From an uncultured Candidatus Saccharibacteria bacterium (lineage in GTDB: Bacteria > Patescibacteriota > Minisyncoccia > UBA6257 > 2-01-FULL-56-20): a DNA stretch of 64,000 bases. Within the stretch, counting starts at the first letter, position 1. Each line of letters starts with the position of its first letter. Below, one piece after another: positions 8,012-62,814 of the stretch. Under the pieces are notes generated by a model. That model was given only the letters and a program-made list of their open reading frames with translations, was not told where the DNA came from and ran no database searches. Location of the stretch: NCBI GenBank assembly GCA_964365185.1, contig CAYIOP010000001.1, positions 112,673 to 176,672 of the forward strand, in the 5' to 3' direction. A program made the translations under genes and the position numbers.

Positions 8012-9115
8012 TTATACACTTTCTAATTTTTCTATTCTAACGCCGATCAGGCGGATTTTTTTCTTGCTGGGATTTTCACGCTGGTCAAAAAATGGTAACA
8101 ATAATTTTAGAACCTCAAATTCTAGATTTTCCTTTGAGTGAATCGGCTCTTTTAAGGTGTGGTTTTTGGATTTAGTGATAAAACCCGAGAAGCGAACTGT
8201 GATAACAATGGTCTTAAATGAATCGAATCTAGATTCTTGAAATCGATTAAAAACCGATTCGATGAGTTGTTTCATTCTTTGAGTAATAAATTGCGCGTCA
8301 AGTGTGTCTTTGGAAAAAGTTTCTTGTTCGCCGATGGATTTGATTTCCTCAAATTCCCCAACCGGCGAGTCGTCCTTGCCTCTGATTTTTTGGTATAGCA
8401 CCATCCCCCATTTACCTAAAATTCGTTTCATTTCAGGTTCCGAGAACTTTTGGAGGTCTCGAACTTTAGCAACACCAAGTTTATTTAAAATCGTTTCGGT
8501 CTTGGGGCCAATGCCGGGAATTTTCCGAATAGTTAAATTTTCCAAAAATTTTTCTACTTTCTGCTGGCAGATTTTTTCATCATCATCGCCGATTATGGTT
8601 AAACCATCGGGTTTTTGCGCATCCGAGGCGATTTTAGCGATGAGTTTATTGGGACCAATACCAATGGAGCAGGTTAGATTTTCCTGGCTTTTGATTTTAG
8701 TTTTGATTTTTTGACAGAGAATTTCGGCTTTTTTAAATTCATTTAAAAAACTTAAATCAAAGTAAGCTTCATCGATGCTGGCTTCTTCAACAGCAGAAAC
8801 AAAATTTTTAACAATGGCAATTATTTCTCGCGAGACCTCAGTGTAGTTTTTATGATTCCCCCCGATAAAAACCGCTGCCGGCAATTTTTTGTCTTTAGCT
8901 TCCTGTGATAATTGCCAGGCCCGGCTGATGGACATAGCGGAGTGGATGCCATAGGCGCGGGCGGCATAATTCGCGGTTGAAACCACTCCCCGACCGTGAC
9001 CAGCCACCGGGTCAGCGCCGACCACAATTGGCAGGCCCTTAAGCCGAGGTCGGTCTCGCTCCTCAATCGCCGCAAAAAAAGCATCCATATCAAGATGGGC
9101 AATAATTCTATTCAT
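8012..9115 (-). CDS. dinB: DNA polymerase IV
   Basis: MNRIIAHLDMDAFFAAIEERDRPRLKGLPIVVG, Y-family palm motifs. Confidence 0.9.
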   Translation of the reverse strand: MNRIIAHLDMDAFFAAIEERDRPRLKGLPIVVGADPVAGHGRGVVSTANYAARAYGIHSAMSISRAWQLSQEAKDKKLPAAVFIGGNHKNYTEVSREIIAIVKNFVSAVEEASIDEAYFDLSFLNEFKKAEILCQKIKTKIKSQENLTCSIGIGPNKLIAKIASDAQKPDGLTIIGDDDEKICQQKVEKFLENLTIRKIPGIGPKTETILNKLGVAKVRDLQKFSEPEMKRILGKWGMVLYQKIRGKDDSPVGEFEEIKSIGEQETFSKDTLDAQFITQRMKQLIESVFNRFQESRFDSFKTIVITVRFSGFITKSKNHTLKEPIHSKENLEFEVLKLLLPFFDQRENPSKKKIRLIGVRIEKLESV

Positions 9116-9278
9116 TTTTTTACCTTGATATGGATGAAGGAAAGGGGTCGGGAAAATAGGAAGTTTTCCCGTGTGGGAATCCGCCAGCTGGCGGAACTAA
9201 AAACCGAGAGGTTGTTAGGGAGCTTGATTTACTCAAGCGACCATTCATATCGAGATGAGCGATGATTCTCATAAAGAA

Positions 9279-12765: not shown

Positions 12766-13368
12766 TTAGCGAATGAATTTTATTTTTGAATTGATTATTT
12801 TGACCACCTTTGAGGGCTTATTTTGTTTGCGACCACTATCGACATAGAAATCAATTTTAGCGCCGAAATATTTTTTGGCTTCTCGAATTGTTTTGGCGGG
12901 TGGCTCACCCTCAATGTTGGCGCTTGGGGCAACCAGTGGGCCGGTTTTTTTAAGGAAGGCGCGAATTGAAGCGGGTTTTGGAATACGGAAGGCAATGGTC
13001 TTAGTGCCGCGATGTAAATAAGTAAATTTTTTGGATGGGCAAGGAAGGATGATGCTTGTTGGGCCGGGCCAAAAACGAGAAGTTAGAATATAGAATTGAG
13101 AATTAAGGGAAATGCTAAAAAACTTTTTTAGGTCGCTTATGTTGCTAATTAAAACAATTATTGGTTTTTTAGGATTACGACGACGAAGCTTGTAAATTTT
13201 CTCTACTACTTTTGGTTTTAGAGCTGAACCAACTAGGCCATAGATGGTGTCAGTTGGGATAACGCCAATGTCGCCCTTTTTGAGTAGGGCGATGATTTTT
13301 GAGCTAAATCTTTTACTCTCTTCAATTTTTCTTGGCATTCCTTTTTCGAGAAATAAAGAAGTAAGCAT
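12766..13368 (-). CDS. tsaC: L-threonylcarbamoyladenylate synthase (YrdC/Sua5 family)
   Basis: GVIPTDTIYGLVGSAL...KIYKLRRRNPKKPIIVLISN, the YrdC signature. Confidence 0.8.
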   Translation of the reverse strand: MLTSLFLEKGMPRKIEESKRFSSKIIALLKKGDIGVIPTDTIYGLVGSALKPKVVEKIYKLRRRNPKKPIIVLISNISDLKKFFSISLNSQFYILTSRFWPGPTSIILPCPSKKFTYLHRGTKTIAFRIPKPASIRAFLKKTGPLVAPSANIEGEPPAKTIREAKKYFGAKIDFYVDSGRKQNKPSKVVKIINSKIKFIR

Positions 13369-13858: not shown

Positions 13859-14051
13859 AAGAATTAGGCGTTAAGTTTTTCCTCCGAAAGAGGATCCGCC
13901 TCTGGCGGAAAGCGGGAAAGTGTTAGGGGTTAAGTTTATATTAATAATTGTGGCTCGGCAATTTGGGGGTTGCTTAGATTGACAAGGTAATTAGAATTCT
14001 TTATTCTTTTTATTAGTAAACAAGTGAAAATTTAATAGAACTGGAGGGAAT

Positions 14052-14285: not shown

Positions 14286-14578
14286 GAGGAATTTTTAGTA
14301 ATTGGGAAGGAGAATTGGCCATGGAGGGATCTTTTCCGTGGGGTCTGGTAATGATAAATTTCGGAGTGGCCCTAGGATTTCTTACTTTAGGGTTGGCTGC
14401 GCCGCTTAAGTACGTGAGAAGTCTTAAAATCATCGTGCCTATTGCGGTGATTGCGCTGGTTCTAATGATTTGGGGAGGATTAAACCTCAAGCCACCAAAA
14501 AAAGAACAGAAGCCGCAAGAAACTGGGGCCTCAAGCAATATCGCTTGGGGCTTTTTTTATTTTCCCCGTAGGAAATAG
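14282..14578 (+). CDS. Small membrane protein
   Basis: 98 aa with three TM helices, translationally coupled to the previous ORF. Confidence 0.4.
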   Translation: MRGIFSNWEGELAMEGSFPWGLVMINFGVALGFLTLGLAAPLKYVRSLKIIVPIAVIALVLMIWGGLNLKPPKKEQKPQETGASSNIAWGFFYFPRRK

Positions 14579-14692
14579 CGAAAAAAATGTAAAATATTTT
14601 TGAACTAAAAAGGAATCTTTGAACAAAAAATTAGAGCTAATTTTTAGAACTGGGGAATAATAAAGACGAAAAATATTTTATTTCCTACGGGG
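14564..14692. repeat. Inverted-repeat element pair of the CCCCGTAGGAAAT...AAAATATTTTTGA family: long arm 14564-14605, short inverted arm 14668-14692
   Basis: Eight copies in the window: 14564-14605, 14668-14692, 21168-21215, 21273-21300, 25636-25683, 38125-38167, 49923-49965, 50028-50056. Confidence 0.7.
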
Positions 14693-14774
14693 TTTACACA
14701 ACATTCTCACATTCTTCCGCCTTCGTCCCACTTAGCGGGACTACGGTCGGACAAGTCAGAATATTAGAATGCGC

Positions 14775-16205: not shown

Positions 16206-17516
16206 TCATAGAATTTTGCCACGAAGTCGGCGGTGGTAGGCAATGGCAAATCTGTGGGCTTCGTCACGGATTTGGATAAGGGTTTTGGGTTCAATGCCAG
16301 CTGGCATTTTGCCGATAAGTTCGTTTTTCTTGCGCTCTGGGCCTTTAGCTAAACCAATGACCGGCATAAATAAGTTAAGTTTGTTTAGAACTGATTTGGC
16401 CGCGTTTACCTGTCCCCTACCACCGTCGATTAAAATTAAATCTGGGTGCGGCCAGTTGTTTTTAAAACGGCGAGTTAAAATTTCTTTAATCATAGCAGTG
16501 TCATCTTGACCTTGAACCGCTCGAATTTTGAATTTGCGATATTCGTTTTTATCGGGCCGAAAAGTGTTTCCTCCAAAGGCGGATCCTCCTTTGGAGGAAA
16601 AAACCACCATTCCACCCACTGCGGCGGTGCCGGAAATTTGAGAGATGTCGTACCCCTCAATACGTTGTTTAGGGTTTAGCCAATAGCCACTAGGGTTTAG
16701 GGAATTATTCTCCTTGATGAGGGCGATGTCGTTGATGTGCTTGAGGCCAAAGATTTGGCGGCGGATTTTTTCTGCTTTTTCAAATTCCAGCTTTTCGCTT
16801 AGTTGTTTCATCTCTGCCTCAAGGTTGCGAATAACTCTGGATTTTTTGCCGGCTAGAAAAAGTTTGAGGTTATGAATGATTTTTTTATATTCAGTTTCAC
16901 TTATCGCGTCCACGCAGACACCCGGGCAATTACCAATTTGAAAATCAAAGCAGGGACGGCTGACGCCTACATGATGTGAATCTGCTAATCTATGCAAATG
17001 CCGCAAATTGCGAATAGTTCGTTTTTTTAATTCTTCTTCGGAGTGAGTGTTCCATGGGAAAATTTGGCGAATGAGTTTTAATGATTCACGGACATCTCGG
17101 GCAGAGAGAAAGGGACCGTAGATTTGGCTGTATTTCCCTTTTTCCCCGGCAATGTCTTTGCCACGAGTTAGAACGAGGCGGGGAAATTTTTCTCCGCCTT
17201 TGGCGGAGGTAATCGCAAAATATATGAAACTTCGGTCGTCTTTTTCTAAGACATTGTAGAGCGGCTGATGTTTTTTGATGAGCTCTGATTCTAAAATCAG
17301 CGCCTCAAGCGCGGTGTCAGCTTTTTTGAAATCAATTTTTTTGACTTGAGAAATGAGTTTTTCAATTCGGTAGTCGTGGCTTTTCTGAAAATAACTTGAA
17401 ACGCGGCGCTTTAGATTGCCGGCTTTGCCGATATAGAGAATTTTCCCGTTCGTGTTTTTCATCAAGTAAACGCCGGGAGTGTCGGGAAGTTTTTGGTAGA
17501 GAGTGGTTTTAGTCAT
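16206..17516 (-). CDS. uvrC: Excinuclease ABC subunit C. Short form of 436 aa with no C-terminal (HhH)2 domain
   Basis: GIY-YIG N-domain (YLMKNTNGKILYIGKAGNLKRRVSSYF), a Cys-rich UvrBC region, and an RNaseH-like endonuclease domain ending IRDEAHRFAIAYHRRLR. Confidence 0.85.
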   Translation of the reverse strand: MTKTTLYQKLPDTPGVYLMKNTNGKILYIGKAGNLKRRVSSYFQKSHDYRIEKLISQVKKIDFKKADTALEALILESELIKKHQPLYNVLEKDDRSFIYFAITSAKGGEKFPRLVLTRGKDIAGEKGKYSQIYGPFLSARDVRESLKLIRQIFPWNTHSEEELKKRTIRNLRHLHRLADSHHVGVSRPCFDFQIGNCPGVCVDAISETEYKKIIHNLKLFLAGKKSRVIRNLEAEMKQLSEKLEFEKAEKIRRQIFGLKHINDIALIKENNSLNPSGYWLNPKQRIEGYDISQISGTAAVGGMVVFSSKGGSAFGGNTFRPDKNEYRKFKIRAVQGQDDTAMIKEILTRRFKNNWPHPDLILIDGGRGQVNAAKSVLNKLNLFMPVIGLAKGPERKKNELIGKMPAGIEPKTLIQIRDEAHRFAIAYHRRLRGKIL

Positions 17517-18214: not shown

Positions 18215-20746
18215 TTAGCGGAGAACCTTGCGGAGATATTGCCCTGTGAAACTACCGGCTTTGCGGGCAATTTCTTCGGGGGTGCCCACTGCCACGATTT
18301 TGCCGCCAGCCACTCCCCCTTCGGGCCCTAAATCAATTACCCAGTCCGCGGTTTTGATGACATCTAAATTATGTTCAATAATTAAAACGGTATTGCCTCT
18401 ATCAACCAACTTTTCTAAAACCTTAAGCAGATTTTCGACATCGGCAAAATGCAGGCCAGTGGTGGGTTCGTCGAGTAGATAAAGTGTTTTTCTAGTGTCG
18501 CGTTTGCCGAGTTCGGCTCCGAGTTTGATTCTTTGGGCTTCGCCACCAGAAAGCGTAGTCGAAGATTGGCCGAGTTCAAGATAACCCAAACCAACTTCTT
18601 CTAAAATTTTTAACTTGTCATGCAGATGGGGAATTTCTTCAAAAAACTTGGTGGCTTCCTCGATGGTCATTTTAAGGATATCGTGGATACTTTTGTTTTT
18701 ATATTCAACTTCTAGTGTCTCCCGATCAAATCTTTTGCCTTTGCAAATGTCGCACTGGACATAAACCGTGGGCAGGAAATGCATTTCGATAGCGATGGTG
18801 CCATGGCCTTCGCAGTTTTCACAGCGGCCGCCGGGCCGGTTAAAACTGAAGCGGCCAATTTTGTATCCGCGAAAGCGCGCTTCTTCGGTTGAAGCAAAAA
18901 GTTCGCGGATAAAAGTCCAGGCACCAACATAAGTGGCGGGATTAGAGCGCGGCGTGCGGCCAATGGCGGATTGGTCAATATTAATTAGACGATTCAGATA
19001 TTCATTGCCCATCACATTTTTACAGCCAAAATCCCGATAATGAGTGCCGCCATAGCGGCCGGAGAGAGCTTTAAAAATTACGTCATACATGAGCGAGCTT
19101 TTGCCCGAACCAGAAACACCGGTAATGCAAGTCATCCGGCTAAGCGGAATATCCACATCTAGATTTTGAAGATTGTTGGCAAAGGCACCGCGGATTTTTA
19201 AGGCGGGTTTGTCTTTGGAAATCTGGCGCCTTTCTTCCGGAACTTCAATAAATTTTTTGCCGCCGAGGTAGTCCAGAGTTAGTGATTCTTTATTTAAAGA
19301 GCGGCTCTTGGGAGATAAAATTTCCGGAATCGGACCTTGAGCAATAATTCGGCCGCCGTGTATGCCCGCGCCTGGGCCAATGTCAACCAGATAGTCGGAC
19401 TCGCGGATGGTTTCTTCGTCGTGTTCAACCACAATAATGGTGTTACCCAAATCCCTTAATTCGTGGAGAGTTTGGATAAGTTTGGCGTTGTCACGTTGAT
19501 GTAGGCCGATTGTGGGTTCATCTAGAATATATAAAGTGCCGACTAGTCGTGAGCCAATTTGCGAGGCGAGGCGAATGCGCTGGGACTCGCCGCCAGAGAG
19601 CGTGCCGGCTTTTCTGTCTAAAGTGAGATATTCGAGGCCAACGTCAATCATGAACTCCAATCGATTACGGATTTCTTTTAACGGAACTTGGGCGACTTCC
19701 AGGAATTTTTTATCTTTAATAGTTTCGAGGGTGCCGATAAAATCATAAGCATCAGCAATGGAAAGATTAGTGACGTTGAAAATATTTTTATTTTTGAGAG
19801 TCACGCTTAGGGCTTCTTCTTTGAGACGTTTGCCAAGACACTTGGGACAGGGTTTATCGCTCCAGACGCTTTCGGTGCCTAAGCCGTGGCATTCCTCACA
19901 AGCGCCATAAGGACTATTAAACGAGAATAGTCGTGGCTCGATTTCCGGAAAGGAAAAACCATCATTGGGGCAGGCGAATTTTGAAGATAAGTGAGTTTCG
20001 GTTTTACCATGGAGAATAGTGACTAGATCGTGGCCGTGTTTTAGAGCTGATTCAACCGCTTCGGCGATGCGCAAGCGATTATCTTTATTTCTTAAATCAA
20101 GAGTAGTCGGAATCCGATCAATTACTAATTCGATAGTGTGTTGTTGGTAGCGGCTAAGTTCAATGCGATTTTTTAAGGATTGAAATTTGCCGTCCAAGCG
20201 GACTTCGCGAAAACCGGTATTTAGAAAATCGTAGAGAAGTTGGTAGTACTCGCCTTTTCGGCCCCGCACTATAGGGGCGAGAATAATTAACTCTTTATCA
20301 TTTTTTGATGACTTAGCGATTTCAGTAACGGCATCAACAATTTGTTCGGTGGTTAATTTTTTAATTTCGTGGCCACACTTGGGACAAAAAGGTTTGCCCA
20401 CGCGCGCAAAAAGAACCCTTAGATAATCGTAGATTTCAGTGATGGTGGCCACAGTTGAGCGAGGATTGCTGGAATGGCTTTTCTGGTCAATTGAAATGGC
20501 TGGAGAGAGACCTTCGATTTCATCCACATCGGGCTTGTCTAAGCGGCCCAAAAATTGGCGAGCATAGGCCGAGAGAGATTCGATGTAGCGGCGCTGGCCT
20601 TCGGCGAAAATCGTGTCAAAAGCCAAACTGGATTTGCCGGAACCAGAGAGTCCGGTAAAGACAATCATTTTGTCGCGCGGAAGCTCGAGGTTAATGTTCT
20701 TAAGATTATGCTCGCGAGCGCCTTTGATAATGATTTTGTCTTTCAT
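18215..20746 (-). CDS. uvrA: Excinuclease ABC subunit A (843 aa; insertion domain absent)
   Basis: Two ABC ATPase modules ([15 protein letters not shown].., [15 protein letters not shown]..), zinc fingers, and the UvrB-binding region. The roughly 110-aa insertion domain between the Zn-finger cysteines is missing: [11 protein letters not shown]...CPKCLGKR are adjacent. Confidence 0.9.
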
Positions 20747-20797
20747 AAAAATGTAATGCTAATCTACAAATTTCATCCGAATGCTGCGAATGATTGC

Positions 20798-20827
20798 GTC
20801 CTCCGAAGGAGGATCCTCCTTTGGAGG
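20798..20827. repeat. 30-nt GGAGG double-hairpin palindrome TCCTCCGAAGGAGGA+TCCTCCTTTGGAGGA, upstream of uvrA
   Basis: Two adjacent 6-bp-stem hairpins that are mutually complementary. Family members at 13880-13909, 16569-16598, 23530-23559 and 42136-42165. Confidence 0.7.
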
Positions 20828-20913
20828 AAATGTTGCGAATTTATTTGGATTTGACATTTTTAGGGTTGTGGTGTATGCTTTGAGTAGTTAATTAAATTAA
20901 GTTTGGAGGAGCT

Positions 20914-21069
20914 ATGAAAGTTTTGGCAGTATTACTGGGACTCGGGATGCTAGTATTCGGAATTTTGGTAATGGCCTTCGGTAAGCCCGAAGAAGGTCTA
21001 TGTGGCTTTTTCTTTATCTGCGGAGCCATTATTTATTTTCGCGAGCTCTCGGTTATGAGATCAATATAA
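20914..21069 (+). CDS. Small membrane peptide (51 aa)
   Basis: GGAGGAG SD 6 nt before the ATG, two TM helices. Terminator at 21096-21130 (CCAGTGA...TCACTGG followed by T7). Confidence 0.35.
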   Translation: MKVLAVLLGLGMLVFGILVMAFGKPEEGLCGFFFICGAIIYFRELSVMRSI

Positions 21070-21450
21070 GAATTCACCGCGAAAATTCTATGGATCCAGT
21101 GATGAATTTCACTGGGTCTTTTTTTATTTTTGTTAATACGCGAAATAGGCCCGGGGTTGGGGTCTATCCCCCGTAGGAAATGAAGAGAAAATCCGGTATT
21201 TTCTCTTCTGAAATAAACTTTGTTTTAAATTAAGTTTATTTTGACAAAAAGAAGTCGAGGTTATTAGTCGCAGAAAATACCCGATTTCCTACGGGGTAGA
21301 GGGTGTATCAAATGAAGTTTAGAGTGAAAAACGAAAAGTGTAAAGTAGATAACGTAATACTAATCTACGAATGGCGTGCGAATGATACGAATAATTTAGC
21401 GATTGATTGAATTATTGTAATGTTCTAGTTGCTATAAATACTAAAGCGGA

Positions 21451-23493
21451 TTACTTAACTTTTCTGTTTAACTCCTTAATTTCGTCTCTTAGGATGGCGG
21501 CGAGTTCGAAGTCGAGGTGTTTGGCGGCTTCGCGCATTTCAATTTCTTTATTCTTGATTAGTTTTTCAATCGCGGTTTTGGATTTTCTGATGGGTCGAAG
21601 CTCAAGTTTTAAGAGTTCTTGAACATCTGGCAAGATATCTTTAATAGCTTTAATAATGGTTTTGGGAGTAATGCCATGTTTTTGGTTGTATTCCAATTGG
21701 ACCTTGCGGCGGCGTTCGGTCTCCCCTACCGCCCGCTTGATGGAACCGGTGATAGTATCGGCATAGATTAAAACTTCGCCTTGGGCGTTACGGGCGGCGC
21801 GGCCAATGGTTTGAATGAGCGAGGTCTCACTTCTTAAAAATCCTTCTTTGTCAGCGTCTAAAATGGCCACCAGCGATACTTCCGGCAAATCAAGACCCTC
21901 CCTTAATAAATTCACGCCAACTAGAACATCGTAGTCCCCTTTTCGAAGCGAAGTTAAGATTCTAATTCTATCTAAAGTTTTGACGTCGCTGTGGAGGTAA
22001 GCAACCTTCATATTAGGTTTTAGGTGATAGGTTTTAGGTATTAGAGATGATGGGGTTGGGTTTTGATTTTGTAAATAATCGGTAAGATCCTCGGCCATTT
22101 TTTTGGTGAGCGTGGTGACTAAGACCCTTTGTTTTAAATTCACGCGTTTTTGGATTTCCGGAATCAAATCCTGAACTTGACCGCGAACCGGACGCAAAGT
22201 GATTTTTGGGTCAACTAGGCCGGTGGGACGAATAATTTGTTCCACGATTTGCTGGCTTTTTTTACGTTCGAATTCAGCTGGCGTGGCCGAAGTATAAATT
22301 ACTTGACCAATCCGTTTTTCAAATTCATGAAACTGCAAAGGGCGGTTGTCGGCGGCCGAGGGTAGACGAAAGCCATATTCGATTAATGTTCGCTTGCGAG
22401 AGGCATCGCCGGCATACATGCCGTTTAACTGGGGTACAGTGACGTGGGATTCATCAATGACGGTTAAGAATTCTGGAAGTCCGCCTTCGCGCCGGCGCTT
22501 CGGCGGGACAAAGTAATCCAGCAAGGTTTCGGGTGGAGCGCCGGCAGGGCGGCCACTTAAATGACGGGAATAATTTTCAATACCGTGGCAGTAGCCAACC
22601 TCTTGCATCATGGCCAAATCAAATTTGGTGCGGCGTTCCAAACGCTCGGCCTCCAGATATTTGCCGGTTTTCTCAAAATGTTTGAGTTGCGCTTTTAGTT
22701 CCTCTCGAATGGCTTTGACAGCGCGATCCCGGTCTTCTTTAGGAGTGATAAAGTGTTTGGCTGGAGCAAAAACAACTTCGGGAATTTCCGGTGTCTGGCC
22801 GGGCATAAATCCTTGGACTGGATCGATTTCGTAAATCGATTCGATAGTTTCGTTTTTGACCTCAAAGTTGTAAACAACTTCTTTATCCATGGGCATAATT
22901 TCCCAATGATCGCCGCGCAGGCGAAAAGTGCCGCGTTTTAAATCGGCGGTGGTGCGATTAAATTGGAGTTCAATCAGTTTTTTGGCGAAATTCTTGCGGT
23001 CGATTTTCTGGCCTTTTTTGAGGCGAAAAATATTTTCTTCATAAACCTCCGGCGCGCCTAAGCCATAGATACAGGAGACTGAAGCCACCACAATCACATC
23101 TGGGCGGGTTAAAAGCGCAGTGGTGGCGGCATGGCGAAGTTTATCGATCTCATCGTTAATCATTGCTTCTTTATCGATGTAGGTGTCAGTGGTGGGCAAA
23201 TACGCCTCGGGCTGGTAATAGTCGTAGTAAGAGACAAAATAGTTGACTGAATTGTTGGGGAAAAGTTCACGAAACTCATTACAGAGTTGGGCGGCCAGGG
23301 TTTTGTTGTGAGCGATGACTAGCGTGGGTTTTTGAACTTTCTCGATGACGTTGGCAATCGTAAAAGTTTTGCCACTACCAGTGACACCTAAAAGAGTTTG
23401 ATGCGAATAATTTTTCTCCAAGCCAGAAACTAATTTTTTGATAGCGTCGGGTTGGTCGCCAGCGGGTTTGAATTTTGAGTGGATTTTGAACAT
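21451..23493 (-). CDS. uvrB: Excinuclease ABC subunit B
   Basis: Start chosen at [18 protein letters not shown], the canonical UvrB N-terminus. Helicase motifs and a C-terminal UVR domain. Confidence 0.92.
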
Positions 23494-23616
23494 TTTTAAA
23501 AGCGTAATACTAATATACAAATATGTGTGTCCTCCGAAGGAGGATCCTCTCTTGGAGAAAATGATACAAATAATGTAATCAACTAGAAGCGGATAAACGC
23601 GGATTGAAAATTGCCC

Positions 23617-24585: not shown

Positions 24586-24672
24586 AGAATTAGGATTTAG
24601 AATACAGAATTTAGAATTAAGGGCTAAACGGCACGACGTTAAAATAAATGATAATCAGAAACCAAAGGGAAG

Positions 24673-25684: not shown

Positions 25685-26233
25685 TTACTTAAGATGCTCC
25701 TGGATTTTTTTCTTCAAACGACCGATAGCCACTCTTAAATTAACCTCGGGTTTGTTTAAAATTTTGGAGATTTCTTTATATTTTAAATCCGCAACAAAAT
25801 GAAGCTCAAATAAATCTTGTTCTTCTTGGGAAATTGATTTCAAAAAAATTTGAATTCTTTTGAGTTCGACTTGGCTGTCCATTTTTTCTTGGCCGCTATA
25901 TTTTGATGATTCTTCGAGCTGGATTTCTTCGATGTCGGAAAAATGAGTTTCTTTTTGTTTACGATAATGATCTATTGTCGTATTTCTAGCTAATTGCCAA
26001 AACCAGGTTAAGAAATTGCCCCTTTTCGCATCGAAACTTTCAATCCGATCGATTAATTTAAGAAAAATTTCTTGGCTTAAATCTTCGGCGATATGGCGAT
26101 TTGACGTTTTATTCATACAAAACCCAAAAACCTTATTAAAGAGCTCCTCGTAGAGCTTCTCGGCTGCCCGGGTGTCTCCTTTTTTAAGGCTTTGAGCCAG
26201 CCGATTATATTTAGCAAATTCAAATAGAGCCAT
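25685..26233 (-). CDS. ECF-type sigma-70 family RNA polymerase sigma factor
   Basis: Region 2 (FLTWFWQLARNTTIDHYRK) and a region 4 HTH (LKYKEISKILNKPEVNLRVAIGRLKKK). Confidence 0.8.
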   Translation of the reverse strand: MALFEFAKYNRLAQSLKKGDTRAAEKLYEELFNKVFGFCMNKTSNRHIAEDLSQEIFLKLIDRIESFDAKRGNFLTWFWQLARNTTIDHYRKQKETHFSDIEEIQLEESSKYSGQEKMDSQVELKRIQIFLKSISQEEQDLFELHFVADLKYKEISKILNKPEVNLRVAIGRLKKKIQEHLK

Positions 26234-26269
26234 GAAGTAATACGTTTTGGGGAATTAAACGTTACAAAA

Positions 26270-26959
26270 CTATCGCTTTCGCTTCAAAAGCGAGTGGAGC
26301 TTTACTTCTCCTAGGGGTTCATCATTTTGCCGCAGTTTAAAACTATTTTTTAACTCTGTCCAAAAGGCGCGATCGAGCCGCCAGTTAATGATAAAAATGA
26401 TAGACATGGCAATAACCGCGCCAACACCAGCGCAGAGCATATCTTTTTGGGCGTCCCAAATATCGCCTTGTGAGCCAAGAAAAGCTAAGCCGGCGCTAGA
26501 ACTGACTGAAGTGGCGGCAAGCCATTCAATAATTTCATAGACCGCGGAAAAAGACAGAGTGACATCGAGCGGCAGATAATAGCCCCAGAACCCTTTAACC
26601 TTGGCGATTCTTAAGAAAATCTCACGAATTGGATAAGTAAGCAAAAACCCAAAGGAGAAATGGACCAACCGGTCGTACATATTTCTCTCCGCGCCAAACC
26701 AGTTTTTAAGAGTATCACCAAACGGCACTTCAGCGTAAGTGTAGTGCGAACCAATAACATGGAGAATTAAAAAAATCGTGATTAAAGTGTATGAAACATT
26801 AGAAAGTTTAAAATAACGTCCTAAGAAAATAATAAGCGGCACAAAAATAAACACCAAATAATTTTCAAGCAACCAGTCGTGGGGATAACTTGGATTTATC
26901 GCTGCCCAAACCCAGGCGACAAGGAAAATCGCTAATAAAAACCATCTATATTTTGTCAT
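26270..26959 (-). CDS. Polytopic membrane protein (YjdF/DUF2238-like?)
   Basis: 229-aa ORF with about 6 TM helices. The family assignment is tentative. Confidence 0.4.
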   Translation of the reverse strand: MTKYRWFLLAIFLVAWVWAAINPSYPHDWLLENYLVFIFVPLIIFLGRYFKLSNVSYTLITIFLILHVIGSHYTYAEVPFGDTLKNWFGAERNMYDRLVHFSFGFLLTYPIREIFLRIAKVKGFWGYYLPLDVTLSFSAVYEIIEWLAATSVSSSAGLAFLGSQGDIWDAQKDMLCAGVGAVIAMSIIFIINWRLDRAFWTELKNSFKLRQNDEPLGEVKLHSLLKRKR

Positions 26960-28723: not shown

Positions 28724-28902
28724 TATTAGAAGTAAGAATTTAGGATTGAGGATTGAGGATAAAGAATTAAGAGAAATTCGAGTCTAGAAAATAGAAACAA
28801 AAAAAATAATATCTAATTAAGTATACACTGTAAACGAGAGCGGGTATAAACAAAAACCCCTCGACCAAATGGCGGAGGGGTTTTTGACTTATAAATTTTG
28901 GT

Positions 28903-40926: not shown

Positions 40927-41685
40927 TTAAGGGAATTGATTAGATATTTTAATTATTTTCTGAAACTCTTGTAAATTTAAACTAGCGCCACCGACCAAAA
41001 CGCCGTCTATCTCGTTGTGTTGAATAATACGGCCGACATTTAAAGATGTTACCGAACCGCCGTAGAGTATTTTAGGTTTTAGGTTATAGGTTATAGGTTT
41101 TAGAAATTCTCGAATGAAGTTGACCATTTCGAGGATAAAGGAGGGGGTTTCTTTAAGCGAGCGGTCGCGGCTGGTGCTGATGGCCCAGATGGGTTCGTAG
41201 GCGATGAGAATGTTAGATGATCGAAATGTTCGAATGTTCGAAATGTTTTTTAGATTATTCTTTATCTGGGAGGCGACGAATTTTTTGGCCACGGGGACGC
41301 CTTTCTTGCGAACGATGGCTGGCTCACCCACACACAAAATTACCTTAAGCCCGGCGCGAAGCGCGTCTTTAATCTTTTGGCTCACAATTTCATCGGTGTC
41401 GCCCAAAGCGCGCCGTTCGGAATGACCAATAATAACATAACTGACGCCTAATCTTTTGAGCATCACGGCTGAAACCTCGCCGGTAAATGGACCGGCAATT
41501 ACTTCTTCTCTAGAAACATCTTGGCTGCCAAGCTTGGCTTTTTTCAAAATGCGACTGACTCGATTTAAAAATACAAACGGTGGGCAGACCACCACGTTTT
41601 TTTTATCGGAAATTTTGGCCAGCTTGAGAGCGCCGGATTCACTGGTAGGGTGCATCTTCCAATTAGCAATTATTATTTTAGCCAT
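40927..41685 (-). CDS. tpiA: Triosephosphate isomerase
   Basis: ANWKMHPT, IIGHSERR, AYEPIWAI, and a GG(A/S)V-type C-terminal motif. The coding sequence contains TTAGGTT-type short tandem repeats. Confidence 0.9.
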   Translation of the reverse strand: MAKIIIANWKMHPTSESGALKLAKISDKKNVVVCPPFVFLNRVSRILKKAKLGSQDVSREEVIAGPFTGEVSAVMLKRLGVSYVIIGHSERRALGDTDEIVSQKIKDALRAGLKVILCVGEPAIVRKKGVPVAKKFVASQIKNNLKNISNIRTFRSSNILIAYEPIWAISTSRDRSLKETPSFILEMVNFIREFLKPITYNLKPKILYGGSVTSLNVGRIIQHNEIDGVLVGGASLNLQEFQKIIKISNQFP

Positions 41686-42113: not shown

Positions 42114-42135
42114 GGCCCTATCGTCTAATGGCTAG
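42114..42135 (+). repeat. 22-nt duplicate of the 5' end of tRNA-Glu (GGCCCTATCGTCTAATGGCTAG)
   Basis: Exact copy of tRNA positions 1-22 (42427-42448). The GIY-YIG gene lies between this copy and the intact tRNA. Confidence 0.85.
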
Positions 42136-42181
42136 CCCTCCGGAGGAGGGTCCTCCTTCGGAGGAGACGCACAAAGATGAA

Positions 42182-42448
42182 ATGAATTGTTTTCTCTATG
42201 TATTAAAGAATAAAAATAAAAACTGGCATTATATTGGAGTTACCTCTAACCTAAAGAAGAGGTTGGAATATCACAATCGCGGTAAAGTTAAATCAACTCG
42301 ACCTTATGTTCCACTTACGCTTGTATATTCAGAAAAATTTAATAATAATAGTGAAGCCCGCAAGCGAGAAAATTTTCTAAAAAGGACAGCTCGAGCAAGA
42401 GAAGATTTATTCGAAAAAATAGATTTGGCCCTATCGTCTAATGGCTAG
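42182..42448 (+). CDS. GIY-YIG nuclease family protein (YhbQ/UPF0213-like, 88 aa)
   Basis: FLYVLKNKNKNWHYIGVTSNLKKRLEYHNRGKV...RPYVPLTLVYSEKFNNNSEARKRENFLKR is a GIY...YIG...R...E...N motif. The longest ORF starts at 42128 inside the tRNA-fragment copy, so the internal Met at 42182 is preferred. The stop codon lies inside the intact tRNA. Confidence 0.7.
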   Translation: MNCFLYVLKNKNKNWHYIGVTSNLKKRLEYHNRGKVKSTRPYVPLTLVYSEKFNNNSEARKRENFLKRTARAREDLFEKIDLALSSNG

Positions 42449-42498
42449 GACGGTTGGTTCTCAGCCAGCAAATCGGGGTTCGATCCCCCGTAGGGCTG
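42427..42498 (+). tRNA. tRNA-Glu (anticodon CUC)
   Basis: Cloverleaf: acceptor GGCCCUA/UAGGGCU, D-stem GUCU/GGAC, anticodon stem GUUGG/CCAGC with loop UUCUCAG, T-arm CGGGG-UUCGAUC-CCCCG, discriminator G. No CCA encoded. Terminator at 42510-42540. Confidence 0.85.
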
Positions 42499-47316: not shown

Positions 47317-47356
47317 TTTAATTAGTATTTAAGATTTAGGATTTAGGGTTCGGCAT

Positions 47357-48256
47357 TTAGATAATTTGGATGGCTCGAAGTTTGGCGGAGTGGCTTCGAA
47401 AATTTAGTTTGATTTCTTTTTCTTCGGGTGTAATTGGTTTTTTTGTTAAAATTTTTCCTTTGTTCTCCTTCTCTATTTTTTGAAAATATTTTTTTATTAA
47501 AGCGTCTTCTAAAGAATGAAAGCTGATGATGATTGCCCGACCACCTATATTTAAAACATCACCGAGGCGAGATAAAATTTTTTCCAGATTTTCAAGTTCA
47601 CTGTTTGCGTAAATTCTTAAGGCCTGAAAAGTTCTGGTGGCGGGATCGATTCGACTTTTGTTCCGGCCGCTGCCTCGTTCATAACTTTTGGGAAGCGCCT
47701 GACGAATAATGTTGGCTAGTTCTGAGCTAGAAATAATTCGACTATTACGACTGCTTTTTTTGATGGCTCTTGCAATAGCTCGTGAATATCTTTCTCCGCT
47801 AAATTTAAAAATGATGTCGGCGAGGTCTTGTTCTTTTAGTTCGCGAATGATTTCGGCCACTGGTTTCTGTTTCGAGGAATAAGTCATGAAAAGCGGTTCG
47901 TCGTGCGTGAAACTGAACCCTCGATTGGAATTCTCGATTTGCTCGGAAGAAAATCCCAGGTCCAGGAGCAAGCCGTCGGCTTTGCTTAATTTTTTCTCTT
48001 TTAGAATTTCCGGAATCTCGGCGTAGTTGCCGGAGATTAAAATTACTTTGGAATTACGACTGACAATTTTTTCTTTGGCTCTTGCGATTAAACTTTCATC
48101 CCAATCAATTCCCAAAAGAGTGCCGTGTGGTGAAATTTTTTCCAAAATTTCCTTCGCGTGTCCGCCGCCATTCACTGTTCCATCGATAACGAAACTGCCT
48201 GGTTTGGGATCGAGATATTCGACGACTTCTTTTAAAAGAACCGGTTGGTGGGACAT
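47357..48256 (-). CDS. rsmH: 16S rRNA (cytosine1402-N4)-methyltransferase
   Basis: MSHQPVLLKEVVEYL...DGTVNGGGHA, the RsmH/MraW signature. Confidence 0.9.
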   Translation of the reverse strand: MSHQPVLLKEVVEYLDPKPGSFVIDGTVNGGGHAKEILEKISPHGTLLGIDWDESLIARAKEKIVSRNSKVILISGNYAEIPEILKEKKLSKADGLLLDLGFSSEQIENSNRGFSFTHDEPLFMTYSSKQKPVAEIIRELKEQDLADIIFKFSGERYSRAIARAIKKSSRNSRIISSSELANIIRQALPKSYERGSGRNKSRIDPATRTFQALRIYANSELENLEKILSRLGDVLNIGGRAIIISFHSLEDALIKKYFQKIEKENKGKILTKKPITPEEKEIKLNFRSHSAKLRAIQII

Positions 48257-49044: not shown

Positions 49045-49098
49045 GCCAGAAGCTAAAAAAATATCCACAAGTTATCCTGTAGGGCGAGAAAATAGGAT

Positions 49099-49440
49099 TT
49101 AGGATTCAGAATTTAGGATTTCGTCGATTTTAGCGGCTAAAATAAAGTCGTTTTCAGATAAACCACCAATCGCATGCGTCCAAAGTTCAACTTTGACTTT
49201 GCCGTATGTAAGGAAAATATCTGGATGATGATTTTCGCTCTCAGCAATTTCTCCGATTTTGTTTACAAAACTTAGCGCTTCTTTGAAATTCTTGAATTTG
49301 AAATCCGCGTAAATTCTTTTTGGTTCAAGCTGCCAATTTGAAGAAACTTGTTGCAATAATTTTTTTGACTCTTCAATGGTTAAGGGCGGCACTCCCCCTT
49401 CGCAAGGAACACATTTTTTCTGGAATAGTTTTATTATCAT
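49099..49440 (-). CDS. Pterin-4a-carbinolamine dehydratase
   Basis: EGGVPPLTIEESKKLL...ENHHPDIFLTYGKVKVELWTHAIGGLSENDF, with the PCD [EDKH]xHP signature. Confidence 0.8.
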   Translation of the reverse strand: MIIKLFQKKCVPCEGGVPPLTIEESKKLLQQVSSNWQLEPKRIYADFKFKNFKEALSFVNKIGEIAESENHHPDIFLTYGKVKVELWTHAIGGLSENDFILAAKIDEILNSES

Positions 49441-49887: not shown

Positions 49888-50044
49888 TTTAGATTTTCAC
49901 TTGCGACCTTTTACTAATTATACCCCGTAGGAAATGATGAGAAAATAGTTAAATATTTTTGAATCAATAAAACTTTAAACTAAATGTGTTGTTCACTAAA
50001 AAAATAGGCAAGACGAGTAAGAGTGATTGAAAATATTTTATTTC

Positions 50045-50716
50045 CTACGGGGTAGACCAGTTTTGATACCACTCGCGCATCTGATTAATTTCAGCGGTTT
50101 GCGCCTGGATAATATCTTGAGCGAGTTTTTTAATCTCATCGCGATTGGAAGAAACTGCCATCATCTGGGCCATCATTACGGCCATTTGATGATGAGGAAT
50201 CATCTGTCGGATAAACTCGGCGTCAAAATCTTTAGCGCTCCCCAATGCTTCAAGATCCGTCTGGTCGCCCATCATGCCGCCCATCATTATGCCGGGCGAG
50301 TGATTCATCATCGAGTGGCCAAGATAGGTGACCGAATCAGGAACATCCGAGCCGTACCAATTTTTATACCAGCTTCGCATTTCATTAATTTCCTGGGTTT
50401 GAGCGACAATAATCATTTGAGATAGAGTTTTAATTTCAACTCTTTTGGATTTTTGAAGCGCGAGATTAGCCATGACAATCGCGTCTTCGTGGTGCGGAAT
50501 CATCTGCTCAATGAAGTGGCGATCTAGATCATTCATTGGATTACGATTGCCTCCCATCATATTATTCTGATTGCCACCGCCCATCATGTAGTTGTTCATC
50601 ATGTTCGGATACCGGGAATTTAAACCAACAGAAGCCAGCGATGGAAAAACATTAACTAGGACAACACCAACTAATATGCCGACGATTACGTAAATATAAT
50701 TGTTATTATTTTGCAT
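50045..50716 (-). CDS. DUF305 domain protein with a Met/Asn/Gly-rich region
   Basis: Two DUF305 repeats (MIPHHEDAIVMA..; MIPHHQMAVMMA..) and an MMNNYMMGGGNQNNMMGGNRNPM segment. Confidence 0.7.
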   Translation of the reverse strand: MQNNNNYIYVIVGILVGVVLVNVFPSLASVGLNSRYPNMMNNYMMGGGNQNNMMGGNRNPMNDLDRHFIEQMIPHHEDAIVMANLALQKSKRVEIKTLSQMIIVAQTQEINEMRSWYKNWYGSDVPDSVTYLGHSMMNHSPGIMMGGMMGDQTDLEALGSAKDFDAEFIRQMIPHHQMAVMMAQMMAVSSNRDEIKKLAQDIIQAQTAEINQMREWYQNWSTP

Positions 50717-61969: not shown

Positions 61970-62608
61970 TTACTTTATTGACTTCCAGGAACCGTTTTTG
62001 AGAACCGAGATGACTTTTCCTTTTAGTTCCATTTTGTCAGTAAATAGAATAATTTTATGCTTTGGGTTTTCGGGCTTTAAGTAGACGTAAGGCGGCTTAT
62101 CGTCCGAGATAAATCTTTTTATAGTGGAACCATCCTCGATACTTGCTAATACAATATCACCGGAAACAAATTCTTTTTGAGATTTTACTAAAACCGCATC
62201 GCCGTCGTCGATGCCGGCGTTAATCATTGAGTCGCCAGAAACTTTTAAAACAAAAACTTCGTCTTTTAGAAAAGACACATCGGATGTTGATGTGGTTTCC
62301 CATTCTCCGGAAATTTCTACCATTTCAAGTGGGGTGCCAGCTTTAGTGATTCCTAAGTTAGATATGAGCGGAGAAAATCCTAAAGTTTTAAATCCAGCAA
62401 AAGTGATTTTTAAACTTCGAGCAAATGAATCTCTATTTATTAATCCCGTTTGCTCAAGTTTTTTTAGGAGATCTAGAACAGATTGATTAGAGGAAACACC
62501 CAAATACCCTCTCATTTCTTCTAGGGTTGGCGAATATCCATTATCTCGTGTGTGTTCGTAAATTAGTTGGAGTAGTTCTTTTTGACGGTCCGTTATAAGG
62601 CCTTCCAT
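61970..62608 (-). CDS. lexA: LexA repressor (wHTH + S24 peptidase)
   Basis: N-terminus LITDRQKELLQLIYEHTRDNGYSPTLEEMRGYLGVSSNQSVLDLLKKLEQTGLI (LexA wing-helix). Cleavage-site-like KAG, catalytic Ser in VSGDSM, and Lys in TIKRF. Confidence 0.85.
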   Translation of the reverse strand: MEGLITDRQKELLQLIYEHTRDNGYSPTLEEMRGYLGVSSNQSVLDLLKKLEQTGLINRDSFARSLKITFAGFKTLGFSPLISNLGITKAGTPLEMVEISGEWETTSTSDVSFLKDEVFVLKVSGDSMINAGIDDGDAVLVKSQKEFVSGDIVLASIEDGSTIKRFISDDKPPYVYLKPENPKHKIILFTDKMELKGKVISVLKNGSWKSIK

Positions 62609-62614
62609 AATTAA

Positions 62615-62642
62615 ATTATAAACTGACCTTTTGGTCAGTCAA
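62615..62642 (-). promoter_or_regulatory. lexA promoter with an embedded palindromic operator ACTGACC-TTTT-GGTCAGT
   Basis: On the minus strand: TTGACT (62642-62637), a 16-nt spacer containing the palindrome (62622-62639), TATAAT (62620-62615), then ATG 6 nt later (leaderless). This is the classic autoregulatory layout. Confidence 0.6.
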
Positions 62643-62814
62643 TGTGGATAACTTTTTGAATATGCCCTTTAGGCGGGTTCGTTCAACTGGCTGGGGGGTG
62701 GAAGTAAAAAAAGCCCTGAATTTTTGGGAAAGACAGGACTCGTTGAGTCAAATTTAGAAAAAAATAAGGGGTTGCTTGTGGCAACCCCTTTTTGTTTCCT
62801 TTCTAATCTCGCGA

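Follow-up and report, generated by a model that had tools for sequence, protein, structure and literature searches.

The leader shared by uvrA and uvrB on a 64-kb Patescibacteria stretch consists of single arms of a Parcubacteria repeat family

Why should uvrA and uvrB, two genes of nucleotide excision repair (NER), carry nearly the same sequence ahead of their start codons, and why should a third copy lie between them with no gene behind it? The question is raised by a stretch of 64,000 nucleotides from an uncultured Patescibacteria bacterium (contig CAYIOP010000001.1, positions 112,673 to 176,672; the whole stretch is called the window), in which the 18-mer TTYGTAKATTAGYATTAC occurs three times, always on the minus strand: before uvrA, before uvrB, and in the spacer between the two genes (the orphan). 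A motif common to the upstream regions of uvrA and uvrB is a classical SOS signature, and LexA boxes are found there in many bacteria. A first-pass annotation, made from the letters alone, had proposed a duplicated promoter/leader module of the NER genes. Matches to a profile of foreign copies identify the three sequences as single arms of a repeat family of Parcubacteria, and this family is not specific to DNA repair.

Three arms around uvrB and uvrA

The three copies read TTTGTAGATTAGCATTAC (20753-20770, uvrA), TTCGTAGATTAGTATTAC (21354-21371, orphan), and TTTGTATATTAGTATTAC (23504-23521, uvrB). The orphan, which has one mismatch, lies downstream of the uvrB stop codon and precedes no open reading frame (ORF). 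When up to one mismatch is allowed, the 18-mer has exactly three copies in the 64-kb window, as compared with none in 100 dinucleotide-preserving shuffles. The annotation had placed three near-identical copies here, the third without a gene behind it, and both statements are borne out by the motif search, the shuffles, and the profile matches. It had also read the uvrB leader as GCTTTTAAA-ATG; the shared motif is indeed present, but the actual letters are GCTTTTAAAA-ATG. The uvrA start codon (ATG at 20746) lies 6 nt past the 18-mer and that of uvrB (ATG at 23493) 10 nt past it, with no Shine-Dalgarno sequence between repeat and ATG in either gene. The likeness extends beyond the 18-mer, reaching 78% over 46 nt between the uvrA copy and the orphan, and 85% over 46 nt between the palindrome-bearing stretches of uvrA and uvrB. 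In gene direction, the module of the window can be written ATTATTCG-TATCATTCG-CAnnnCATT(C/T)G-TA(G/T)ATTAG-(T/C)ATTAC. The genes, arms, and adjoining palindromes are as follows.

18215..20746, minus strand: uvrA, 843 aa (Pfam UvrA_inter, ABC_tran)
20750..20792, minus strand: uvrA arm, uninterrupted (family profile of foreign copies, match 20792..20750, E=1.2e-5)
20799..20828, no strand: GGAGG double hairpin immediately upstream of the uvrA copy, core intact
21351..21394, minus strand: orphan arm, uninterrupted (family profile of foreign copies, match 21394-21351, E=1.5e-6)
21451..23493, minus strand: uvrB, 680 aa from the ATG at 23493 (Pfam UvrB, UvrB_inter, Helicase_C; identical protein P0001)
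23501..23527, minus strand: uvrB arm, gene-proximal half, CACACATATTTG-TATATT-AGTATTAC (family profile, E=1.8e-3)
23530..23559, no strand: GGAGG double hairpin, two units TCCTCC-N3-GGAGGA, within the uvrB copy
23560..23576, minus strand: uvrB arm, distal half, ACATTATTTGTATCATT with -35-like TTTGTA (repeat family D1, by manual alignment to the orphan)

The two uninterrupted arms have the same order of parts. The uvrA arm runs from TTCGCA through an 18-nt spacer to TAGATT and then AGCATTAC, and ends 6 nt ahead of the uvrA ATG. The orphan runs from TTCGTA through an 18-nt spacer to TAGATT and then AGTATTAC; it starts ~55 nt past the uvrB stop codon and ends ~9 nt ahead of the -35 of a conserved promoter-like site. 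The uvrB arm is in two pieces. Its proximal half aligns to positions 20-46 only of the family profile and ends 10 nt ahead of the uvrB ATG; its distal half aligns manually to the orphan as ATTATT(C/T)GTATCATT then C(G/A)CAC..., and the two halves are kept apart by the 30-nt palindrome, which lies between the -35-like and the -10-like parts, at CATT^CACA. The GGAGG palindrome had been placed 25-35 nt from the motif in both leaders; this fits uvrA (28 nt) but fails for uvrB (8 nt). A search with nhmmer, using a profile of 60 metagenome copies and hence of foreign copies only, recovers the three copies of the window together with those of two relatives, L088 and L094, and finds no other in the 64 kb.

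The repeat family and the genes beside it

The wider family comes from one scan of a metagenome collection with the 18-mer TTYGTAKATTAGYATTAC as query, which returned 120 loci, roughly a third of them more than chance matches. A 5-copy profile located 65 copies of the module in 43 of these loci. The 61 unique copies align over ~40 nt to ta-TTnGTA-nn-ATTnGnATG-n-ATTC-GTAGATTAGTATTAC, the full arm consensus being ta-TTnGTA-nn-ATTnGnATG-n-ATTC-GTA(G/T)ATTAG(T/C)ATTAC, with the 18-mer as its gene-proximal end. Conservation includes positions outside the search pattern, namely TT at -22/-21, G at -19, ATT at -14..-12, G at -10, and A at -4 (59 of 60 copies), and the 23 copies without an exact match to the pattern give the same consensus. 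One module-rich contig belongs to Parcubacteria by the relatives of its CTP synthase (Ryanbacteria, Wolfebacteria, Liptonbacteria), and another module-bearing contig has a 23S rRNA gene with a group I intron. The family is present in many genomes of Parcubacteria (Patescibacteria). Rfam matches at module-bearing loci are to rRNA, tmRNA, tRNA, and a group I intron only, and the only one in the window is a tRNA at 42427-42498; a known RNA family was rejected as identity of the module, which has no Rfam match at gathering score. In seven loci (L113, L117, L120, L122, L141, L149, and L168) the arm continues as ATTAC-tAAGCGTAAGCGt-ATG, forming a subfamily with a conserved 12-nt direct repeat, tAAGCGTAAGCGt, between arm and start codon.

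Genes stand close to the arms. In 31 of the 61 copies, an ORF of at least 60 aa starts between -2 and +27 nt after the ATTAC, with a mode at 6 nt. According to Pfam, the products encoded downstream include proteins of translation (L3, L11, L14, L29, RF-1, Fmt, GatC), but also GreA, SSB, the 5'-3' exonuclease of PolA, CTP synthase (PyrG), ATP synthase c and epsilon, and Hsp20, and further a DksA-type zinc finger protein, an FtsE-like ATPase, a solute-binding protein, a TraC-like ATPase, and adenosine deaminase. Neither uvrA nor uvrB lies behind any of the fetched metagenome copies. About 18 of the 61 copies instead lie against the stop codon of an oncoming gene, the TAA lying within the terminal TTAC in six of them. 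Among single arms, ~19 face gene starts versus ~8 facing gene ends, and some copies occur within conserved operons (between atpD and atpC, ahead of rplC and rpmC). No tRNA or rRNA genes were found downstream of orphan arms. The repeat family is not specific to DNA repair.

This distribution contradicts a control module specific to NER or SOS, that is, an operator or dedicated promoter for uvrA and uvrB. Such a module would account for three copies occurring in the 64-kb window only around uvrB and uvrA, for the copy that L088 and L094 retain at uvrA, and for the weak TTCGTAATTAGTA-like motif ahead of both uvrA and uvrB in another relative, L092, a partial resemblance that the family profile does not match. 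However, foreign copies precede diverse non-repair genes and never uvrA or uvrB, relatives with 83-84% UvrB identity (L083 and L086) lack the module at their uvr genes, and in the window dinB, uvrC, and a ydjM-like gene are without it. We therefore regard the idea as extremely improbable. Of the duplicated promoter/leader module proposed initially, what stands is that homologous copies of a gene-proximal module have promoter-like anatomy; the NER specificity does not stand. This outcome is a corrective one, as the leader shared by uvrA and uvrB is no evidence of a repair regulon.

The lexA gene of the window leads to the same result. It is canonical (61970-62608; GDSM motif, Pfam), and its promoter, TTGACT-16-TATAAT-6 nt-ATG (lexA site 61970-62660), predicts a leaderless mRNA. 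Between its -35 and -10 lies a perfect palindrome, ACTGACCAAAAGGTCAGT, of CTG-N10-CAG layout and unique in the window, which is probably the LexA operator of this organism. Palindromes of this type are missing from uvrA, uvrB, dinB, and the ydjM-like gene, GAAC-N4-GTTC was searched for without result, and the upstream region of lexA has no 18-mer. A LexA box was accordingly rejected as identity of the module, since the 18-mer is not at lexA, the module stands beside non-repair genes, and dinB and uvrC lack the motif. From the sequences, control of the module by LexA/SOS is excluded.

Arms of the family are either single or arranged in back-to-back inverted pairs, whose ...GTATTAC ends point outward and abut coding sequences; the window has single arms only. 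There are 13 such pairs, with an outer span of 88-121 bp in 11 and of 161 and 182 bp in the other two, around a variable centre. They suggest a miniature mobile or selfish palindromic intergenic repeat, comparable to ERIC, REPIN, or miniature inverted-repeat transposable elements (MITEs) and devoid of any promoter role. Its terminal inverted repeats would be the arms, adjacency to starts and stops would follow merely from the very short spacers of Parcubacteria, and the uvrA, uvrB, and orphan copies would be decayed half-elements. This is in line with the several copies per contig, with ends that abut stops (~18) as well as starts (~31), with the copies within operons, with the uvrB copy being in the window and missing from L088, L094, L083, and L086, and with other small mobile-looking repeats in the same genome. 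The pairs, however, lack direct target-site duplications at their flanks (the flanking ATT/AAT is inverted and part of the consensus), and no transposase association was seen. Nor are copies within a pair or a contig more alike than copies from different metagenomes, so that there is no sign of recent proliferation: identity is 0.63 within pairs versus 0.60 between loci (permutation p=0.26), ranges from 0.28 to 0.86 among same-contig copies, and is ~60% over 43 nt family-wide. The absence of co-evolution in pairs and of special likeness within contigs speaks against both recent transposition and selection for a hairpin, and favours independent constraint on each arm. A purely selfish repeat also accommodates poorly the ~19:8 bias of single arms towards gene starts with its sharp mode at 6 nt, and the retention of the uvrA copy across saturated synonymous divergence. 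On balance, it seems unlikely.

The uvr locus in relatives and its small insertions

A scan of the genome collection with UvrA gave only distant relatives (at most 76% identity, all without the module, the nearest being a Candidatus Wolfebacteria bin at 76%). Hence, UvrB homologues of 77-84% identity were traced to their contigs and the upstream regions compared. In L088 and L094, whose UvrB and UvrA are 80-81% and 86% identical to those of the window, the uvrA leader holds the module, ...GGATCATTCGCATACATTTGTATATTGGCATCAT-ATTATT-ATG; a second, inverted copy lies ~60 nt upstream of it, and an orphan-like copy occupies the same place as the orphan of the window. The module is missing at uvrB in L088, L094, L083, and L086. 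In L083 and L086, which are closer to the window (UvrB 83-84%) than L088 and L094, it is missing at uvrA as well, and L090, L095, L096, L097, and L003 are without it. In these seven module-less relatives, the canonical promoter TTGACT-17-TAAACT stands ahead of a CCCC...GGGG leader hairpin. At the 4-fold degenerate sites of uvrA, identity between the window and L088 is only 30%, which amounts to saturation, yet the module copy is ~78% identical; the comparison thus points to constraint on the uvrA copy. The cluster ECF (extracytoplasmic function) sigma, DUF5667, FKBP, uvrB, uvrA, uvrC has the same order in all relatives examined. Further features of the locus are these.

16206-17516, minus strand: uvrC (Pfam)
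21165..21297, no strand: ~130-bp element ending in the terminal inverted repeats CCCCGTAGGAAAT / ATTTCCTACGGGG, separate from the module
21316..21344, minus strand: promoter-like TTTACA-17-TAAACT directly downstream of the orphan, kept in L088 and L094

The promoter-like site beside the orphan is the counterpart of the TTGACT-17-TAAACT uvr promoter of the other relatives. Promoters of the form TTGACT/TTTACA-17-TAAACT are widely kept: in the window (21284-21344, minus), upstream of uvrB in L083, L086, L090, L092, L095, L096, and L097, and upstream of uvrA in L003 and L088. The hairpin behind them, CCCC(C)TATAG-stem-loop-CGGGG, has an inner stem with compensatory changes between genomes and may be an undescribed 5'-leader motif of Parcubacteria uvr genes.

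L088 has the conserved canonical promoter 170 nt ahead of uvrA, and the arm there is accordingly transcribed and also part of the 5' leader. This brings in an element acting at the RNA level, either an initiation region replacing the Shine-Dalgarno sequence or, for paired arms, an intercistronic hairpin that is processed or stabilises the mRNA. Arms ending a few nt ahead of an ATG that has no Shine-Dalgarno sequence would suit such a role. The L088 arms fold into a long hairpin ending 10 nt before the uvrA AUG (-30.7 kcal/mol, z=-2.2), L092 also has a canonical promoter upstream of its partial, profile-negative motif, and structure prediction leaves the 18-mer and start codon of the window copies unpaired. 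On the other hand, the leaders of uvrA, uvrB, L088, and L092 have no common fold, paired arms do not co-vary, and no Rfam family matches. Distances of -2 to 27 nt to the ATG vary too much for an element that positions the ribosome, ~18 arms are directed at gene ends, and there is no ORF behind the orphan. A role in RNA is quite improbable.

The palindrome that splits the uvrB arm had been taken for a component of the module. It is an independent 30-nt insertion, because the orphan and the L088 uvrA copy lack it, both having the uninterrupted site, and because it recurs inside the coding sequence of uvrC. Five such GGAGG double hairpins occur in the window (13880-13909, 16569-16598, 20799-20828, 23530-23559, 42136-42165), all at or near repair-type genes: uvrA, uvrB, uvrC, the YdjM-like gene, which has one upstream, and a GIY-YIG ORF, which adjoins one. 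The one at 16569-16598 is in frame inside uvrC, where it encodes VVFSSKGGSAFGGNTFRPDK, and gives the protein 6-10 residues more than its homologues. A single-hairpin variant precedes dinB (9180-9195). In L094, a different, GC-rich palindrome, CCCTGCCTACCGGCAGGCAGG, stands in one module arm (about 8444-8466), at the equivalent of the GGAGG position in the window uvrB copy, and is missing from the near-identical L088; a related hairpin occurs in the L092 uvrA leader (about 8776-8795).

Shuffling of the module by the CCCCGTAGGAAAT inverted repeat, which was said to flank the orphan, finds no support in the coordinates. Both arms of that repeat (21164-21181, 21284-21301) lie on one side of the orphan, 53 nt away, and belong to one of three copies (14560-14693, 21165-21297, 49919-50053) of the separate ~130-bp CCCCGTAGGAAAT / ATTTCCTACGGGG element; the end at 50053 merges into GGGGTATAAT ahead of a gene.

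Other small repeats were seen in the window. Tandem heptamer arrays (AGGATTT/AGAATTT on the plus strand, CTAAATC/CTAATTC on the coding strand) stand directly upstream of many minus-strand genes (1594-1631, 13078-13109, 24592-24623, 28728-28773, 41073-41110, 47330-47367, 49087-49130). Two in-frame insertions in uvrB, at the 22010-22048 and 22481-22506 sites, consist of a TAGGTTT-type heptamer array (19 encoded residues) and a GC-rich palindrome (13 encoded residues), and both are missing from several UvrB homologues of 80-83% identity. The 5' end of dinB seems duplicated (9116-9275), with a fragment MRIIAHLDMNG ~125 nt upstream of the real start (MNRIIAHLDMDA) and a TCCGCCAGCTGGCGGA hairpin between the two. 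At 42116-42498, the GIY-YIG nuclease ORF (42128-42448, plus), with the GGAGG palindrome at its start, lies between a duplicated tRNA 5' segment and the intact tRNA (42427-42498), so that the locus resembles a small mobile insertion at a tRNA gene. The window stems from a metagenome contig of Hainich groundwater (0.1-µm filter), and its organism is of Parcubacteria type, within the candidate phyla radiation; its proteins include DUF5671 and DUF5667 (Pfam). The ECF sigma gene (25685-26233) has TGTAAC-N16-CGTAT just a few nt before its ATG (26234-26275, minus), a typical autoregulated promoter of ECF type; an ECF sigma promoter was rejected as identity of the module, whose -35 does not match that of this neighbouring gene. 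Two further candidates were dropped: a divergent regulator conserved beside uvrB, since the ~102-aa ORFs of the window, L088, and L090 have no obvious similarity by eye, and a population indel in uvrC, since the 460 aa of L002 versus 436 aa reflect a gene-calling difference in identical DNA.

Promoter-like anatomy and known systems

To our knowledge, there is no experimental knowledge of transcription signals in Parcubacteria, which are uncultured and have tiny genomes, few regulators, and mostly no Shine-Dalgarno sequences. The arm has a -35-like TTnGTA (3-4 of 6 positions), a fixed spacer of 17-18 nt, and a -10-like TA(G/T)ATT (TAKATT; 4-5 of 6 positions, with T1, A2, and T6 invariant), all below the threshold of a consensus scan, and its conservation goes no further than the predicted +1 (the A or C of TTAC). 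In the window, a Shine-Dalgarno-like sequence precedes 11 of 65 long ORFs, and TAnnnT peaks exactly 6 nt ahead of the ATG (11 of 53 genes), which suggests that leaderless starts are common. With few Shine-Dalgarno sequences and leaderless starts, this anatomy fits an outward promoter for short-leader mRNAs. No other consensus promoter was found by the promoter scan directly upstream of uvrA or uvrB on the minus strand.

We tentatively favour, as a possible reading, that the arm is a promoter cassette which faces outward and yields mRNAs with short leaders and no Shine-Dalgarno sequence. Each arm would be a core promoter of sigma-70 type, with transcription starting at the A or C of the terminal TTAC and producing leaders of a few to about 20 nt, devoid of Shine-Dalgarno sequences. 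The uvrA gene, and probably uvrB, would be transcribed from such cassettes; that of uvrB would later have been split by insertion of the 30-nt palindrome, and the orphan would be a cassette left in the uvrB-uvrA spacer beside the older conserved uvr promoter.

Several observations weigh against this reading, in which promoter function is deduced from sequence alone. The -35-like hexamer agrees with TTGACA at only 3-4 of 6 positions and is not flagged by the consensus scan, and the spacer has a conserved ATTnGnATG, whereas promoter spacers are normally not conserved. The ~18 of 61 arms that point into the 3' end of an oncoming gene would, as promoters, give antisense RNA only. Because of the palindrome, the spacer of the uvrB copy is 47 nt instead of 17, and this arm should therefore be inactive, unless TTCGGA at the palindrome edge (15-nt spacer) substitutes. 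The copies inside conserved operons (atpD/atpC, rplC, rpmC) stand where a promoter is not required, and at uvrA in L088 the arm is within the leader of a canonical promoter.

The conserved spacer bears on another possibility, that of a binding array for a global DNA-binding regulator, with 4-5 ATTnG pentamers, 8-10 bp apart on one helix face, overlapping or replacing the promoter of a growth-related regulon. The arm contains an internal direct repeat, ATTnGTA-nn-ATTnGnAT twice, with pentamers at -23, -14, -4, and +4. All 40 nt, spacer included, are conserved in many genomes, and nothing points to transposition. The arm is found in either orientation as well as in inverted pairs, and the downstream genes are mostly of translation, energy, and replication. 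Yet no candidate protein was found, pilins, transporters, and a conjugation ATPase are also encoded downstream, an array does not explain the single arms that face stop codons, and the periodicity may just reflect origin of the arm by duplication. Such an array is therefore rather unlikely. A combination of promoter and regulator can also be envisaged, in which phased ATTnG pentamers and TA(G/T)ATTAG in a -33/-7 layout would form a promoter class, or a regulator-bound promoter, common to Parcubacteria. From it, a core growth regulon (ribosomal proteins, ATP synthase, RF-1, GreA, SSB, PolA, and here uvrA and uvrB) would be expressed with very short leaders that have no Shine-Dalgarno sequence; if true, this would be the first defined transcription signal of this uncultured radiation. 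We regard this extension as unlikely too.

If the outward-facing promoter cassette is the right reading, the arm may represent the first transcription signal to be recognised in Parcubacteria. It would then be a testable candidate for a strong native promoter or regulatory site, of use in expression tools and in the interpretation of metatranscriptomes, a possible marker of gene starts where genomes are difficult to annotate, and a case of promoter-like cassettes and small palindromes reshaping the spacers that surround essential genes.

Among the known systems near to the module are sigma-70 leaderless promoters, such as that of lexA in the window, whose layout, a -35/-10 pair at 16-18 nt immediately before the ATG with no Shine-Dalgarno sequence, resembles that of the arm. 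They differ in that the -35-like element of the module is weak (TTnGTA), its spacer and discriminator are conserved, and its -10-like element stops about 14 nt short of the ATG rather than 6 nt; the predicted product would hence have a leader of 5-20 nt and not be truly leaderless. Promoters of Bacteroidetes type have TTTG at -33, about 19 nt, and TAnnTTTG at -7, in genomes where Shine-Dalgarno sequences are largely absent. The arm, with TTnG, 19 nt, and TA(G/T)ATTAG, resembles this layout, which we take as a lead and not as a test; it has TTAG in place of TTTG, and other promoters of the window look like ordinary TTGACA/TATAAT. Resemblance to Fur boxes, dif sites, sigma-54 promoters, and T7 promoters was by eye only, and these were dropped as partial AT-rich coincidences.

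The Correia elements of Neisseria, the ERIC of enterobacteria, and REPINs are imperfect palindromes of ~100 bp in intergenic spacers, also within operons, with many copies per genome; the ends of Correia elements create promoters for adjacent genes, and ERIC is conserved across genera. The module pairs are likewise intergenic inverted repeats around a short variable centre, found also in operons. Unlike these elements, the module has no target-site duplication, no excess of within-genome likeness, and no transposase seen with it; it is AT-rich, has an internal direct-repeat structure, and is commonly found as single, start-biased arms. LexA boxes, whose motifs are diverse among bacteria (PMC8565304), differ from the module, which is missing from the lexA promoter, is not palindromic, and occurs elsewhere at many non-repair genes.

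The module sequence itself was not found in the literature searched. Its manner of occurrence recalls the putative mobile promoters of Matus-Garcia, Nijveen, and van Passel (2012; PMC3488235), described as highly similar upstream non-coding stretches reused before non-homologous genes, within and between genomes, some families being kept across genera. The reuse of an upstream stretch before non-homologous genes is the same in the module, for which it is confirmed by Pfam. The definition of those families, 50-100 nt at >=80% identity, differs from an arm of ~40 nt with ~60% mean identity: the window copies have 78-85% over 46 nt, and the family as a whole ~60% over 43 nt. Many copies of the module, moreover, are in inverted pairs or face gene ends. 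The ~60% identity of the family looks like that of an old, constrained consensus rather than of recent copying. In conclusion, the module is best placed among repeated promoter-like intergenic cassettes, a kind already known.

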